A DNA stretch of 64,000 nucleotides. It comes from Eledone cirrhosa. Its lineage: Eukaryota. The position numbers and the translations under genes are program-made. Below are positions 7,187 through 49,883 of the stretch, one piece after another. How positions within the stretch are numbered: the first letter of the stretch is position 1; every line of letters begins with the position of its first letter. The DNA lies in contig OZ024740.1 of assembly GCA_964016885.1 (NCBI GenBank), positions 195,362,001-195,426,000 on the forward strand, in the 5' to 3' direction. The notes under the pieces were generated by a model. It was not told the DNA's origin, ran no database searches, and was given only the letters and a program-made list of their open reading frames with translations.

Positions 7187-7532
7187 ATCATCATTTCATC
7201 ATCATTTCATTTTACGTCCGCTTTTCCCTGCTTGCAAGGGTGGGACGGGAACTGATTCTGGCTTGATTTCTACAGCTGGATGCCCTTCCTAACACCAACC
7301 TCATTTACAGTGAGTGCTGGGTACTTTTTTGCCGTGGCACCTCCACGACCACTTTGCAGTGGAATGATATGGACCCCAGTCCCTATCATCTCATTTCTGC
7401 AGCTGATTAAACTGGAGCAATGTGAAATAAAGTGTCTTGCTCAAGGAAACAACACATCACCCAGTCTGAGAATTGAACTCACAACCTTTTGATTGCAAGG
7501 CCAATGCTCTAACCACTAAGCCATGTGCCTCC
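7187..7532 (-). mobile_element. Tripartite SINE: tRNA head, central body, RTE-derived 3' tail ending in (GAT)n
   Basis: A-box TGGCTTAGTGG and B-box GAGTTCAATTC. The 3' end CCCACCCTTGCAAGCAGGGAAAAGCGGACGTAAAATGA matches the end of the RTE at 43500-46760. Near-identical copy at 30186-30520. Confidence 0.8.
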
Positions 7533-10819: not shown

Positions 10820-13800
10820 AATAATAGAACTACGGTGACAGTAATATCTGCGTACGCACCCCAATCCGGACTGCCCGGCACTATAAAAGACAGATTCTAT
10901 GAGACACTGATGCTCACTACCTCCCAAATAACCGACAGTGATTAGATAATTATTGCAGGCGACCTAAATGGTCATGTTGGACAACATTGTGACGGCTACG
11001 ACGAAATCCATGGAGGCTATGGGTTTGGTACTAGAAATGAGGAAGGCTCCAGAATCCTGGAATTCTGTGACGCAAATAACCTAACTATCTGTAACACTAA
11101 CTTCAAAAAATGTGACAATCACCTGATCACCTATAGATCGGGGGAACACACAAGCCAGGTAGATTATATCCTTACCAGAAGACGTGACAGAGTGTCTGTT
11201 GTAAACACTAAATCCCTCCCCCATGAAGAATGCACCTCCCAACATAGACTGATAATTAGCGACCTAATAGTCAGGACGAGACGTACTAGACAACAGAAGA
11301 GGACTATCCCCAGGAGAAAAATATGGAAGCTAAAGGACCCCACAGCCAGAAATAAATTCAAAAGTATACTACTTGATGCTTTCGACAGTAAGGAAGAGCA
11401 ATTAGAGTCGTACAATATAGAGGAGCAGTGGGAATTCCTGAAAGCAAACCTGCTGATGGCGGCAGACGAAGTCTGTGGCTGGAGCAGGCCTGTAGGCAAG
11501 AGGAGAGTAACATGGTGGTGGAACATGGTGGTGGAGGGGTCAATTAAGGCCAAAAAGCAGGCTTGGAAAGTATGGCGGGATGGGGGAAGCAGAGAAGACT
11601 ATCAAGTGGCCAGGAGGGAAGCTAGGAGACAAGTGTACTTCGCAAGAAGGGAAGCAGAAGAAAGAAAGTTCAAGCATGTTCTACAACGCGAGGACCAAAA
11701 ACGTAAGGTGTTCAGGATTGCTAGGCAATGTGTCAAGGAAAACCGTGATATTGTCGGGGAGAAGTGTGTACTTAATGATGACGGCGTACTTGCCATCACC
11801 GACGCTGATAAGAAGGTAGCTTGGAAGTGTCACTATGAAAGGCTACTAAATGAGGAGAATAAATGGGAGAAAGACAGTCTCCCCCACATCGACCCAATAG
11901 AGGGACCAGCAGTGTTAGTCCAGGGTAGTATAATAAGTAAGGCAATCAAAGATATGAAGACGGGTAAGGCGGCTGGGCCTTCGGAAATAGTTGCCAAGAT
12001 GCTGAAGGCATCTGGTACGGTGGGACACACCATGGTCACCCGGATAGTTAACCAAGTCGTACAGAATGGGGTTGTTCCGAAGGACTGGCATAGCAGCATC
12101 ATCGTTAACTGTTATAAGGGTAAAGGAGATGCCCTAGATAGGAGTAACTACAGAGGCATTAAATTAATCGACCAGGTCATGAAGGTCACGGAAAAAGTAA
12201 TAGCGCAACTAATCAGAGAGAGAATTGATCTAGATGAAATGCAGTTCGGGTTTGTGTCAGGCAAAAGTACCACAGACGCTCTTTTCATTGTACGACAACT
12301 ACAGGAGAAGTACCTAGCTAAAAGTAAACCCCTATACTTAGCTTTCGTCGACTTGGAGAAGGCCTTCGACAGAGTCCCCCATTCCATTATCTGGTGGGCT
12401 CTTAGAAAACTAGGTGTTGACGAATGGCTTGTGAGAGCTATACAAGCCATGTATAAAGAAACAGTCAGCAAGGTTAGAATTAACAACGAATATAGTGAAG
12501 AGTTTAGCGTAAAAGTTGGCGTCCATCAGGGCTCTGTTCTCAGCCCCCTACTATTTATTATTGCCCTTCAGGCTATAACAGAGGAGTTCAAGACCGGTTG
12601 CCCATGGGAACTCCTATACGCAGATGACCTAACACTCGTAGCTGAATCAATGGCCGAGCTAAAGAAGAAATTCCAAACATGGAAGCACGGCCTAGAATCA
12701 AAAGGCCTTAAAATTAACCTGGCTAAGACTAAAGTTCTAGTTTGTAAGAAAGAAAATAAGGCGGCGGTCCCTTCCGGGAAGTGGCCATGCTCAGTGTGTA
12801 GGAAAGGCGTAGGTAGAAACTCCATTTTGTGTCCCAAATGCAAAGTATGGGTGCATAAAAGATGTAGTGGGATCACAGGTAAGCTAACTAAGAACATAGA
12901 TTTTACATGTGGCCGGTGCTCTGGTGCAATAAGTAGCAGCAAGTGCCCACAAAATACTAGCTCTTTCAACTGCGCAGAGGGTTCTATAGAAATAGTGGAC
13001 AGCTTCCGTTACCTGGGTGACAAAATCAGAACTGGATGGAAAAAGTTCAGAGAGCTTATACCACTATTAGCCGCTAAAGGGTTCTCCCTAAAAATGAAAG
13101 GCAGGTTGTATGATGCCTGCATACGAACAGCAATGTTGCATGGCAGTGAGACCTGGGCATTGTGTACAGAGGATATACGCAGACTAGAGAGGAACGAAGC
13201 TTGCATGCTCCGCTGGATGTGTAATAGTAATATACGTGAACGGCAAAGCATAAACGAACTAAGGAAAAAATTAGAAATAAGAGGGATCAGATGTTGTTTA
13301 CTCGAGAGAAGGCTACGTTGGTATGGTCACGTGATGCGCATGAAAGACGATAGCTGTATAACAAAGTGCAAGGCAATAAAGATAGACGGTAGCCACGGAA
13401 TAGGCAGACCCAGAAAAACCTGGGACGAGCTGATAAATTACGACCTCACACACTTACACCTCACCAAGACAATGTCACTGGACCGAGACCTTTGGCGGTA
13501 CTCAGTAATAGAGAAGACCCGCCTTACCTAAATACAAAGTAAAACCTACTACAGTCAATAGGCATCTCTAACAAAATACACCCCCGTCCCACCACCCCCA
13601 CCCCATCCACACCGCCCCTTTCAATGTAAAGTTATGTTGGTGCCACAACATCCAGGCCGAAACAAATGAGATCGTGTAGGTGTCACGACAAAAAAATACA
13701 CAGTTCACGCTGTAATGTGGCCGTGTAGGCAACACGGTAAAAACCTCCCAGCCCCACACTGTAAATGTGGTTGGTGTTAAAAAGGGCATCCAGCTGTAGA

Positions 13801-14032
13801 AAACCCGCCAGACAGTCCACGCTGTAATGTGGCCGTGGTAAAAACCTCCCAGCCCCACACTGTAAATGCGGTTGGTGTTAGGAAGGGCATCCAGCTGTAG
13901 AAAACCCGCCAGATAGTCCTATGCGAGCAAGATAATCACTCTGGCCTCAAGTGGGAAAACCCCCGTCCAAACCCATGCAAGCGTGGAACACGGACGTTAA
14001 ACGTTGATGATGATGATGATGATGATGATGAT
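10820..14032 (+). mobile_element. RTE-clade LINE, 5'-truncated (long-3'UTR sub-family)
   Basis: Partial APE (SAYAPQ, AGDLNGHVG, SQHRL), RT (DLEKAFDRV, VHQGSVLSP, YADD), PHD-type finger, structured 3' UTR and (GAT)n tail. In-frame TAG at 10943-10945. Confidence 0.93.
10946..13531 (+). CDS. RTE ORF remnant (endonuclease C-half, RT, C4HC3 finger)
   Basis: Stop-free frame containing track ORF 11192..13531. It has a 14-codon in-frame deletion (LGDKI^RTGWKK) relative to the copy at 14437, with TCAG microhomology. Confidence 0.85.
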   Translation: MIIAGDLNGHVGQHCDGYDEIHGGYGFGTRNEEGSRILEFCDANNLTICNTNFKKCDNHLITYRSGEHTSQVDYILTRRRDRVSVVNTKSLPHEECTSQHRLIISDLIVRTRRTRQQKRTIPRRKIWKLKDPTARNKFKSILLDAFDSKEEQLESYNIEEQWEFLKANLLMAADEVCGWSRPVGKRRVTWWWNMVVEGSIKAKKQAWKVWRDGGSREDYQVARREARRQVYFARREAEERKFKHVLQREDQKRKVFRIARQCVKENRDIVGEKCVLNDDGVLAITDADKKVAWKCHYERLLNEENKWEKDSLPHIDPIEGPAVLVQGSIISKAIKDMKTGKAAGPSEIVAKMLKASGTVGHTMVTRIVNQVVQNGVVPKDWHSSIIVNCYKGKGDALDRSNYRGIKLIDQVMKVTEKVIAQLIRERIDLDEMQFGFVSGKSTTDALFIVRQLQEKYLAKSKPLYLAFVDLEKAFDRVPHSIIWWALRKLGVDEWLVRAIQAMYKETVSKVRINNEYSEEFSVKVGVHQGSVLSPLLFIIALQAITEEFKTGCPWELLYADDLTLVAESMAELKKKFQTWKHGLESKGLKINLAKTKVLVCKKENKAAVPSGKWPCSVCRKGVGRNSILCPKCKVWVHKRCSGITGKLTKNIDFTCGRCSGAISSSKCPQNTSSFNCAEGSIEIVDSFRYLGDKIRTGWKKFRELIPLLAAKGFSLKMKGRLYDACIRTAMLHGSETWALCTEDIRRLERNEACMLRWMCNSNIRERQSINELRKKLEIRGIRCCLLERRLRWYGHVMRMKDDSCITKCKAIKIDGSHGIGRPRKTWDELINYDLTHLHLTKTMSLDRDLWRYSVIEKTRLT

Positions 14033-14121
14033 ATATATACACTATATTAAATAAATGGAAACTATATTTTTAAAACCATATTTATTCTATTATATATATT
14101 TCAAGGGTACCAAACACTTTG

Positions 14122-14184
14122 TATTTTATCTGATGAAAGCGTACCAAAGTTTTTTGGTACTCTTGAAATATATATAATAGAATA
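14122..14184 (+). ncRNA. Type I minimal hammerhead ribozyme motif, copy 1
   Basis: Stem I TATTTTAT/ATAGAATA, CTGATGA (14130-36), stem II AAGCGTACCA/TGGTACTCTT, GAAA (14165-68), palindromic stem III TATATA, AUA triplet with predicted cut after 14176. Confidence 0.75.
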
Positions 14185-14229
14185 AATATTTATTCTATTA
14201 TATATATTTCAAGGGTACCAAACACTTTG

Positions 14230-14292
14230 TATTTTATCTGATGAAAGCGTACCAAAGTTTTATGGTACCCTTGAAATATATATAATAGAATA
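14230..14292 (+). ncRNA. Type I minimal hammerhead ribozyme motif, copy 2
   Basis: Same architecture 108 bp downstream: CTGATGA 14238-44, GAAA 14273-76, predicted cut after 14284. Confidence 0.75.
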
Positions 14293-14436
14293 AATATGGT
14301 TTTATAAATATAGTTTCCATTTATTTAATATCATTGAATATTTACTCCAGAAAACTGTTGAGTGCTCTGAATCAGTTATAAACATTTATATTTGTTGGAT
14401 TTCCAACAAATTAAATATCTCTTCTACTTATATATA

Positions 14437-15593
14437 TGGCCATGCTCAGTGTGTAGGAAAGGAGTAGGTAGAAATTCCATTTTATGTCCCAAATGCAAAG
14501 TATGGGTGCATAAAAGATGTAGTGGGATCACAAGTAAGCTATCTAAGAACGTAGATTTTATATGTGGCTGGTGCTCAGGTGCAATAAGTACCAAGTGCCC
14601 ACAGGATACTAGCTCCTTCTACTGCCCAGGTGGCTCTATAGAAATAGTGGACACCTTCCATTACCTGGGTGACAAAATCAGCAGTGGTGGAGGGTGCTCT
14701 GAAAGTACAGTAGCCAGAGTCAGAACGGGGTGGAAAAAGTTCAGAGAGCTTATACCACTATTGGCCGCTAAAGGTTTCTCTCTAAAAATGAAAGGCAGAC
14801 TATATGATGGCTGCATACGAATAGCAATGTTACATGGCAGTGGTACATGGGCATTGTGTGCAGAGGATATACGCAGACTGGAGAGGAACGAAGCATGCAT
14901 ACTCCGTTGGATGTGTAATAGTAATATACGTGAACGGCAAAGCATAAACGAACTAAGGGAGAAATTAGGAATAAGAGGGATCAGATGCTGTTTACTCGAG
15001 AGAAGACTACGTTGGTATGGTCACGTGATGTGCATGAAAGATGACAGCTGTATAAAAAAGTGCAGGGCGATCAAAATTGACGGAAGTTACGGAGTAGGCA
15101 GACCCAGAAAAACCTGGGACGATTTGATAAATTCCAACCTCACACACTTACACCTCTCCAAGACAATGTCACTGGACTGAGATCTTTGGCGCTACGCAGT
15201 AATACAGAAGACCCACCTTGCCTAAATACAAAGCGAAACCTACAGTCAGTAGGCACCTCTTAATCAAATATACACCCCACCCCACCCCCATCAACACCAC
15301 CCCTTCTCTGTAAAGTTATGTTGGTACCACAACATTCAGTCCTAAACAAATGAGATCGTGTAGGTGTCACGACAAAAAACACACAGTCCAAGCTGTAATG
15401 TGGCCGTGTAGGTAACACGGTAAAAACCTCCCAGTCCACATTGTAAACGTGGTTGGTGCTAGGAAGGGCATCCAGCTGTAGAAAACCTGCCGGACAGTCC
15501 TATACGAGCGAGACAACCAATCTTGCCTCAAGTGGGATAATTCCCGTCTAAACCCATGCTAGCGTGGAAGATAGACGTTAAACGATGATGATG

Positions 15594-48516: not shown

Positions 48517-48550
<34 letters not shown>

Positions 48551-48580
48551 GTTATGTAATAAACAACATAAGATAATTAT

Positions 48581-48641
48581 TTCATTTACCAGTGGTTTCT
48601 TGAAGACAGATGTTGTATCTGTCTTCAGTCATCTGAATGAA
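48581..48641 (-). ncRNA. Degenerate type I hammerhead motif
   Basis: Minus strand: TTCATT-CAGATGA-c[TGAAGACAGAT/ATCTGTCTTCA]a-GAAAC-CACTG-GTA-AATGAA; one core substitution (CAGAUGA for CUGAUGA). Confidence 0.55.
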
Positions 48642-49883
48642 TAAAAAACATGGTGTTTTTATTAAATATGGATTTGAAAATAAAATTTAGGAAATATGAA
48701 AGTGAGGCTGAAAAGAACGGGTGAAAAGGAAATAGGGGAAAAAACATATATATATAAGAATAAAAATATAAATATCCAGAACGTAAACGTACACACAATC
48801 AACTATGCGCATATACTAAAAAGTATGTAGACGTAAACTCACACAAACGTCTACAAAGAAATATGAACAGGAACATAAATGCATACACATACATATACAC
48901 ATATATATACAAAAATACATACACATACATATGGTGGCTGCCAACTCGTTTTCGAGTACGGCCAATACTTTATATCCATGTAGGAGAACCCCTACCGATG
49001 CGCTGAACGAGTGTGACTTTTTAGTCCAGCCAGTGACTTGAAAACTCTGGTACAAACACTACACCTGTGACAATTATTGACACATAGTGCTGGGCCCATG
49101 GTACCATGTAACGACAAGTGCAGAGAGATCTCCAGATATAAAGCAATGCCTGTGCCGTGAAGCTTTTATAGTGAGCAAAGGCACTGCACAAAGCCAGTCC
49201 CACTCTTTTAACCAAGATGATATTTACCAAAAAGAAGAACAAGTCAACATCATTGGATACCATCAGGGTTGCAGGTGTTATATCAGAGTTTTCCTTGACA
49301 AAGGCTAAGGGGTCATCTCTCCCGGTGATTTTGGATGGCCATTGACTCTTAAGAGCTCCTTTGCCCTTTGACAGGTTTTGTTTTTAGTCCTGCAGGATGT
49401 CCAAAGCCACTCTCCTCACCAAGAAACCTTGGTGGGGTTGCCAGTTTAGTCGCCAACGACCCGACCATGAGACAGGTTGTACTGGGATACATGTTACCAG
49501 TAGCACCAACTGGTGACCTGACACATACATACACACAGGTATATACACTCAAATTTGGGAAGTAGTAAGCAAGCAGAAATAACTAAATAAAAAAATAAAT
49601 AAGAACAAAAAATATATATATATATAATAAGCTCTGTAGCCTACATAGAGCACTCTTTTTTCCTGTACCTTTCCGACGGAAATACTTCATTTATATATAT
49701 ATATATATATATATATGGAGAAATAGGTGATGTCTCTTCACACAAGTTAGATAATACAGAAAAGATAAAGATAAAAATGCACACAAAGAATGTGTACAGT
49801 TTATAGTAATATTAAACAGCAAATACAATCATTCTTCACACCTTATGACAGTATCAACAGTATTAAATGTTAAATATTATACA

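Follow-up and report, generated by a model that had tools for sequence, protein, structure and literature searches.

Two minimal hammerhead motifs within a probable Penelope-like element insertion in Eledone cirrhosa

Does a pair of hammerhead ribozyme motifs, repeated in tandem in a few hundred nucleotides of DNA, constitute a small self-processing repeat of the retrozyme kind, or is it the remnant of a larger retrotransposon? The question is raised by a locus in the genome of Eledone cirrhosa, where an earlier note, made from the sequence alone, had described a tandem pair of complete minimal hammerheads in a unit lacking open reading frames (ORFs) and had termed that unit Penelope-like or retrozyme-like. 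The window analysed here is the whole stretch of 64,000 nucleotides in which the locus lies (GenBank assembly GCA_964016885.1, contig OZ024740.1, positions 195,362,001 to 195,426,000 of the forward strand), and all coordinates without a locus name refer to it. In this report, we find it probable that positions 14040-14430 are an ORF-less, rearranged 3'-end (pseudo-LTR) insertion of a Hydra-type Penelope-like element (PLE) in (TA)n, and that its two minimal type I hammerhead motifs, which belong to the element's family, would cleave weakly at this locus, if at all.

Anatomy of the insertion and its two hammerhead motifs

The insertion (14040..14430, plus strand) is bounded on both sides by TA repeats (14032-14039 and 14431-14437) and contains no ORF, as the earlier note had held. 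Its ends recur in other family copies, always adjoining (TA)n. The note had given the span as 14045..14430; the right-hand end stands, whereas the start is placed at about 14040. Upstream lies a non-LTR LINE (10946..14032, plus strand) made up of an 861-residue open frame (10946-13531; Exo_endo_phos_2, RVT_1 and PHD-finger domains by Pfam), a 3' region and a (GAT)n tail (14005-14032). This tail adjoins the (TA)n target of the insertion. The earlier note had placed the locus just downstream of an RTE 3' tail; the LINE may belong to RTE or to another clade. A second copy of the same LINE, 5'-truncated and beginning at the PHD-finger region, follows in the downstream flank after TATATAT (14438..15180, plus strand).

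Other features of the window deserve a brief record. The 3' region of the upstream LINE includes a 101-nt tandem repeat (13736-13919; 1.8 copies, 95% matches). On the minus strand, a tRNA-like match at 7462-7525 (30.3 bits against an Rfam threshold of 29) could be a tRNA gene or the head of a tRNA-derived SINE. Also on the minus strand, positions 48560-48655 hold the relic of a second, different PLE-type hammerhead, with a CAGAUGA core in which U4 is changed, an 11-bp helix II, GAAA, CCACUGG, UA and a 6-bp helix I. The tail of this relic runs into (TA)n at about 48520-48560, and the same hammerhead type occurs at locus L019 (+1319).

The insertion reads, from left to right, as an inverted arm, the first hammerhead, a 12-nt tail, a second short inverted segment, the second hammerhead, the full tail and an extension. 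The inverted arm (14044..14112, minus strand) is a 5'-truncated copy of the element's 3' arm; over 69 nt it is 99% complementary to 14263-14331. Because it terminates in the 3' strand of helix II, no complete hammerhead is present on the minus strand. The earlier observation that an inverted copy of the 3' region stops at the stem II arm is thereby borne out. The tandem duplication itself (14078..14297, plus strand) was delimited by Tandem Repeats Finder with a period of 108, 2.0 copies and 98% matches. Both 108-nt units have the identical arm/sense junction, and the duplication thus postdates that junction. A 4-nt ATAT microhomology marks the duplication boundary, and each unit departs from the common family sequence by a single change of its own. 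To the right, the remainder of the 3' arm (14293..14336, plus strand) closes with ATCATTG (14330-14336), which is the 3' end of the element and stands next to (TA)n in many copies. The final 94-nt extension (14337..14430, plus strand), which includes a predicted hairpin at about 14391-14410, matches the first ~96 nt at the 5' end of the full-length element.

Read from the sequence, two complete minimal type I hammerhead motifs occupy 14122..14184 and 14230..14292 on the plus strand, 108 nt apart, with cleavage predicted after 14176 and 14284, respectively. In copy 1, the 5' arm of helix I (UAUUUUAU, 14122-14129) is followed by CUGAUGA (14130-14136), by a helix II of 12 positions with one C.U mismatch and a GUUU loop (14137-14164), by GAAA (14165-14168) and by the palindrome UAUAUA (14169-14174). 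U16.1 and A17 (14175-14176) precede the predicted cleavage site, and the 3' arm of helix I (AUAGAAUA, 14177-14184) completes 8 bp, including a single G-U pair. In copy 2, whose core is at 14238-14244, the layout recurs with a shift of 108 nt, but helix II comprises 10 positions, among them one C.C mismatch. Every part that the earlier note had listed was found in both copies, including the 8-bp stem I and the palindromic UAUAUA stem III; only its stem II of 10 positions needs amendment, in that the figure applies to copy 2 and not to copy 1, although the single mismatch is common to both. Both motifs show the catalytic core of type I hammerheads (C3U4G5A6N7G8A9 ... G12A13A14, with A15.1-U16.1 and an H17 other than G). 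Helix I is composed solely of A-U and G-U pairs. Helix III is a 6-nt palindrome (8 nt if A15.1 and U16.1 are counted) for which an intramolecular stem is impossible, and its self-duplex is worth -3.2 kcal/mol.

These motifs exceed what base composition would produce. A pattern for the core alone matched six times in the window against 0.82 expected, a number that none of 100 shuffles attained. The full descriptor, which adds a helix I of at least 5 bp and a helix II of at least 5 bp to the core, matched 56 times in 302,975 bases (the window and the collected loci) and never in five shuffles; its matches in the window are just the two motif copies, and a scan of the window's minus strand with it gave none. 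The Rfam hammerhead models, on the other hand, returned nothing in the window, either at the gathering threshold or at E<=10. A scan with hammerhead models had been proposed with the earlier claim; the Rfam search thus came back empty, whereas the descriptor succeeded. As a control, the same genome has a PLE with an RVT_1 + GIY-YIG ORF whose downstream hammerhead motif Rfam fails to detect as well, and the negative result in the window therefore carries little weight. For annotation, the lesson is that the Rfam models overlook such hammerheads and that descriptor searches are needed.

A genome-wide family and its link to a Penelope-like element

The hammerhead of the window is one of very many. 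A 29-mer consisting of the helix I arm, CUGAUGA and the helix II arm occurs exactly 621 + 607 = 1228 times in the 3.0-Gb genome, whereas the reversed control word occurs 0 times; the genome copy number raised as a check in the earlier note is thus at least 1228 motif copies. With the 220-nt dimer as query, 1280 first-look candidates were obtained in the same genome, and many 76-nt matches among the 40 that were scored are 97-99% identical. These 76-nt matches cover exactly the hammerhead. Among the first 100 core matches listed, there are 72 singles, 13 head-to-head (-,+) pairs with spacings of 138-2270 nt, and one direct pair, which is that of the window. The 46-nt tandem junction, as read in the assembly, is likewise found in the window only when the 3.0 Gb are searched with up to two mismatches.

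Short forms without a central region are also present at loci L002, L003, L009, L010 and L011. Their junctions vary between loci, and the centre of the inversion differs from copy to copy. In other copies, the arm ends either in ...ATCATTG at (TA)n or in a fixed stretch of ~96 nt that itself ends ...CTTCTACTTA at (TA)n. The short copies are far more alike (97-99%) than the ORF-bearing copies are at the protein level (76-93%); the short form may therefore be a non-autonomous element that amplifies separately, rather than a plain product of truncation. One short form, at L002 (G000 C8:44061222-44064327), shares the arm/sense junction of the window and also lies beside a (GAT)n LINE tail. There, the asymmetric part of the loop, i.e. 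the 5' half of the hammerhead, is inverted with respect to the 96-nt extension, an arrangement resembling the flip and flop states of a hairpin loop.

Conservation of the fold was examined in an alignment of 17 motifs, six of them from diverged subfamilies (L021:2190-2263(+), L017:1012-1084(+), L019:2207-2269(-), L023:2800-2869(-), L026:1294-1372(+) and L004:2633-2707(+)). The diverged subfamilies retain the same core and the same palindromic type of helix III but have other sequences in helices I and II. CUGA-GA, GAAA and U16.1/A17 are invariant in all 17 motifs, which upholds the earlier expectation that CUGAUGA and GAAA would be conserved among genomic copies. With respect to the hammerhead structure, 95.3% of the cells of this partly descriptor-chosen alignment are paired, and both sides change in 14 of 23 pairs: four of eight in helix I, and eight of eleven in helix II (five of six in its inner part, three of five in its outer part). 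None of 500 shuffles reaches the observed score, and with partners slid along the alignment only 37-58% of cells are paired. Several of the motifs were picked with the descriptor, which demands pairing, so the paired percentage is inflated, partly by construction; four subfamilies were found by plain regular expressions. Helix III varies among UAUAUA, UAUGUA (with a G.U pair) and UGCGCA (in L026), and remains self-complementary throughout. The first pair of helix II, 10.1-11.1, is A-U in the window copies and the main family, G-C in two of the 17 motifs and G-U in three. Position 10.4/11.4 (14140/14163 and 14248/14271 in the window; alignment columns 23/54) is never a Watson-Crick pair in any of the 17 (C.C in 12, C.U in two, U.C in two and C.A in one), whereas its neighbours covary.

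The family motif also has a fixed relation to a protein-coding element. Longer copies carry an ORF with reverse transcriptase (RT) and a GIY-YIG-like endonuclease (EN), and the motif follows this ORF on the same strand after ~1.1-1.3 kb. At L054, the two hammerheads of a head-to-head pair, separated by 2270 nt, flank a degenerate GIY-YIG-like endonuclease (1627-1995), with a hammerhead 1173 nt downstream of it. The genome contains at least 150 scored relatives of the 123-residue endonuclease piece from this locus (76-100% identity). When loci were anchored on the EN, a family hammerhead was found on the same strand about 1.06-1.2 kb downstream at nine of 14, one of the nine being nearer because of a deletion, and four of five longer EN loci likewise have one downstream on the same strand. 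Conversely, among the first 100 matches listed, five EN matches stand 1.09-1.21 kb upstream of exact hammerhead matches. Locus L071 provides the other end of the element. There, (TA)n is succeeded by the arm (1774-1942, with a mutated core), a 96-nt stretch (1943-2038), an ATG and the ORF, which encodes RT motifs (YRDD), then a CxCX5C linker and the endonuclease. Because the arm, the 96-nt stretch and the start of the ORF follow one another in this way, the extension in the window is the beginning of the full-length element at its 5' end, and short insertions therefore exceed unit length.

A Pfam search returned nothing for the linked ORF or for five of its database homologues, and GIY-YIG does not score on the EN; a PDB sequence search with the ORF found nothing either. 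BLASTP of the ORF gave weak similarity, and hhalign with a five-sequence profile gave a probability of 23.9%. A profile of 30 sequences, built with database homologues of the ORF, aligned with same-genome RVT_1 + GIY-YIG PLE ORFs over 564 columns (hhalign 98.25%, E 2.8e-14). The ORF has 979 database relatives at E<=0.001, with about 35-46% identity. Most of them are on ~2.5-kb contigs of environmental or run assemblies, and some bear precomputed Pfam tags, PF26215 and PF28514, which a local Pfam scan did not reproduce. By eye, the features of the Hydra clade are present, namely RWK, DKT, a CxCX5C linker before a C-terminal EN, a (TA)n target and a hammerhead; the actual instances are RWR and SDKT in L071, RWk and ADKT in the profile consensus, and CNCRIKSNC as the linker. 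On these motifs, compared by eye and not by means of a tree, the linked ORF family is probably a Hydra-clade PLE. The Penelope-like identity suggested earlier, together with linkage to PLE ORFs, is supported, inasmuch as the same motif resides in the 3' region of an RT-EN family of the same genome.

Genome families that match the Pfam GIY-YIG model (PF01541) were considered as carriers of the motif and rejected. They are other PLE families, and none of 12 such loci has a window-type hammerhead; thirteen longer GIY-YIG loci have hammerheads of other types, with the window type there only as probable unrelated insertions. The GIY-YIG search of the genome yielded 10,597 first-look candidates, from which we judge PLEs to be very abundant in it. 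One of the other PLE families (L044, L045 and L048) has a hammerhead motif of the form CUGAAGA...GAAAGUAC ~390 nt after the stop codon of its ORF and ends in (TA)n; relatives of this family are RVT_1 + GIY-YIG by Pfam.

Predicted folding, proposed history and competing explanations

Predicted energetics bear on whether the motifs would act as ribozymes in their present context. For the dimer region, the hammerhead fold is calculated at -21.8 kcal/mol, plus -3.2 for helix III, against a minimum free energy (MFE) of -66.4. Taken in isolation, the two motifs have hammerhead folds of -12.1 and -9.7 kcal/mol, against MFEs of -13.6 and -11.2. The pair probability of helix I is about 0.08 in the isolated motifs and 0.00 with either inverted arm present. 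The insertion as a whole (14040-14430) has an MFE of -172 kcal/mol with an almost continuous stem. In these models, self-cleavage at the window locus is thermodynamically disfavoured, and the rod-like hairpin far outcompetes the hammerhead fold. A hypothetical 108-nt product of two cleavages is also predicted to be a rod (-43.0 kcal/mol as a linear molecule, -44.6 as a circle), a shape that the inverted-arm structure gives automatically.

We propose a history for the family and for this locus. A nick made by the PLE endonuclease in (TA)n would prime reverse transcription, at UA-rich sites, of an RNA longer than one unit (tandem or circular). Frequent template switching by the reverse transcriptase would append an inverted, 5'-truncated copy and so produce the head-to-head hammerhead pairs. 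The hammerhead would be active only once two copies had paired via the palindromic helix III as a double hammerhead, and such pairs would trim multimeric PLE transcripts to unit length. At the window locus, the inverted arm would have been truncated inside helix II; a later 108-nt duplication, with the ATAT microhomology at its junction, would then have placed two sense hammerheads in tandem, and each copy would since have gained one private substitution. A transcript of the locus would fold mainly into the long AU-rich hairpin, hiding the core. The succession of the element's 3' end and its own 5' start, both in (TA)n, fits the published idea of PLEs being copied from more-than-unit or circular RNA.

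Could the locus owe its appearance to something else? The AU-richness of the helices and the silence of Rfam might suggest an AT-rich palindrome in which CUGAUGA and GAAA occur by coincidence and which has no past as a ribozyme, but 56 descriptor matches against none in five shuffles of 303 kb, compensatory change in helices I, II and III across subfamilies around an invariant core, and a position in a PLE 3' region, as published for this ribozyme class, leave such a resemblance scarcely believable. Equally hard to credit is an origin outside retrotransposition, from a MITE or foldback DNA transposon that has terminal inverted repeats and targets TA. Stowaway-type MITEs do resemble the locus in combining long inverted arms with TA-rich flanks. 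The arms here are asymmetric, however, only one end bearing the 94-nt extension; there is no break between the arm and the 3' untranslated region of the RT-EN ORF, nor between the extension and the 5' end of that ORF; the centre of the inversion varies between copies; and the flanks are long (TA)n runs and not a 2-bp duplication. Another reading makes the hammerheads mere passengers of a source of double-stranded RNA, in which AU-rich hairpin transcripts are diced and the small RNAs silence the PLE family. The -172 kcal/mol MFE with its almost continuous stem is in its favor, as is the fact that the weak Rfam matches are to hairpin miRNA-precursor models only. We think this reading improbable, given that those matches score no more than 36.4 bits, where the gathering scores are 53-140, and that the hairpin is a by-product of the usual inverted-copy architecture of PLEs.

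The retrozyme question itself can now be addressed. The earlier note had seen a retrozyme-like unit whose transcript, perhaps supplied by read-through, could cleave itself after 14176 and 14284 and release a 108-nt monomer able to circularise. As a working dimer, the locus would yield an RNA, from read-through or local transcription, in which the two hammerheads pair by way of helix III and cut at these sites, and the 108-nt product would be ligated into a rod-like circle. In favor of such a dimer, dimer-dependent hammerheads require just this arrangement, two complete motifs in direct orientation, according to Cervera and De la Pena 2014 (PMC4209133), and the product is predicted to be a rod like the retrozyme circular RNAs described in Cervera and De la Pena 2020 (PMC7229834). 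Against it, the 108-nt junction is unique in 3.0 Gb, with only two copies of the unit and a single direct pair among the first 100 matches listed; the locus is therefore one local duplication and not a retrozyme family, and this part of the earlier description is not supported. Further, the hairpin is favoured over the hammerhead fold by about 40 kcal/mol, helix I has a probability of 0.00 with either arm, its pairs are all A-U or G-U, and the 8 bp of helix III, all of them A-U, amount to -3.2 kcal/mol. The same sources report that PLE minimal hammerheads cleave poorly even as dimers (PMC4209133) and that described retrozymes measure 150-450 nt (PMC7229834), a range above the 108-nt unit. We thus consider a functioning dimer unlikely to exist here. 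A related, speculative idea, for which we see only a slim chance, is that a retrozyme has been caught at birth: the first tandem duplication of a Hydra-clade PLE pseudo-LTR would have put two dimer-dependent hammerheads in cis, with the 10.4/11.4 mismatch as a clade-specific trait. If this were true, the locus would exemplify a proposed step from PLE termini to self-processing, circle-forming satellite repeats. A PLE terminal sequence has been proposed to seed a tandem array in a preprint by Li, Clavereau and Pollet 2026 (10.64898/2026.07.22.740005). The single tandem dimer in the window illustrates how a retrozyme-like repeat could start from a PLE terminus, but a single locus is no proof of it. 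The rearranged 3'-end PLE insertion remains our preferred account.

Comparison with known systems

The closest counterparts of the window motifs are the minimal hammerheads of PLEs, as described by Cervera and De la Pena 2014 (PMC4209133). Those ribozymes, like the ones in the window, are of type I, with a long helix II, a palindromic stretch at 15.2-16.2 and scarcely a helix III of their own; a hammerhead so constituted would work as a dimer, and a double hammerhead acting on multimeric transcripts has been proposed for them. They, too, lie in the terminal repeats of RT + GIY-YIG elements, as the family motif does, although the window copy lacks an ORF. In both cases, thousands of mostly solitary or head-to-head copies occur per genome, falling into consensus families with compensatory changes. 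The published dual motifs are on opposite strands, 100-700 bp apart, and are matched by the head-to-head pairs of our family; the inverted arm of the window copy breaks off within helix II. There are differences of detail. Helix II has 12 positions here as opposed to 7-8 bp, and helix I has 8 bp as opposed to 4-5. The window motif does not have the extra base between 9 and 10.1 of the published consensus, and our alignment needs no bulge. The 10.1-11.1 pair is A-U in the window motif and the main family, whereas that consensus has G-C. Finally, the conserved mismatch at 10.4/11.4 is a family trait that sets these motifs apart from the published consensus.

For the architecture of the insertion and the class of the element, Craig et al. 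2021 (PMC8557442) serve as reference. PLE insertions are described there as having pseudo-LTRs, a copy that is inverted and 5'-truncated, and an extension confined to one end, and the window insertion corresponds in its inverted, 5'-truncated copy and its one-end extension. The Hydra clade, comprising PLEs with a C-terminal EN, is on record in molluscs and other aquatic invertebrates. Its members resemble our family in having a single RT-EN ORF, RWK, DKT, a CxCX5C linker, insertion in (TA)n and a hammerhead near the 3' end; the criteria for the clade also include the absence of a CCHH motif. We estimate the present element at ~3.7 kb, whereas '<3 kb' is given for the clade. The hammerhead of the cephalopod element Hydra-1_oBim (File S2 of that paper) has its own 4-bp stem III, in contrast to the palindromic, dimer-type helix III found here.

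With the metazoan non-LTR retrozymes, as Cervera and De la Pena 2020 (PMC7229834) describe them, the locus shares type I hammerheads in direct tandem, a low GC content and a predicted rod-like monomer. Those retrozymes, however, form families of tandem arrays, from dimers to multimers, whose units measure 150-450 nt and which are spread over many loci, whereas the window has one 108-nt dimer at one locus. Most of them have canonical hammerheads with loop-loop contacts, and their circular RNAs have been shown; the window has a minimal hammerhead, predicted from the DNA sequence. As the term is defined in that paper, the window copy is not a non-LTR retrozyme; it is a PLE minimal hammerhead in a decayed fragment of a Hydra-type PLE. 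The locus thereby documents a dimer-type minimal hammerhead tied to what is probably a Hydra-clade PLE, in a family of at least 1228 motif copies.
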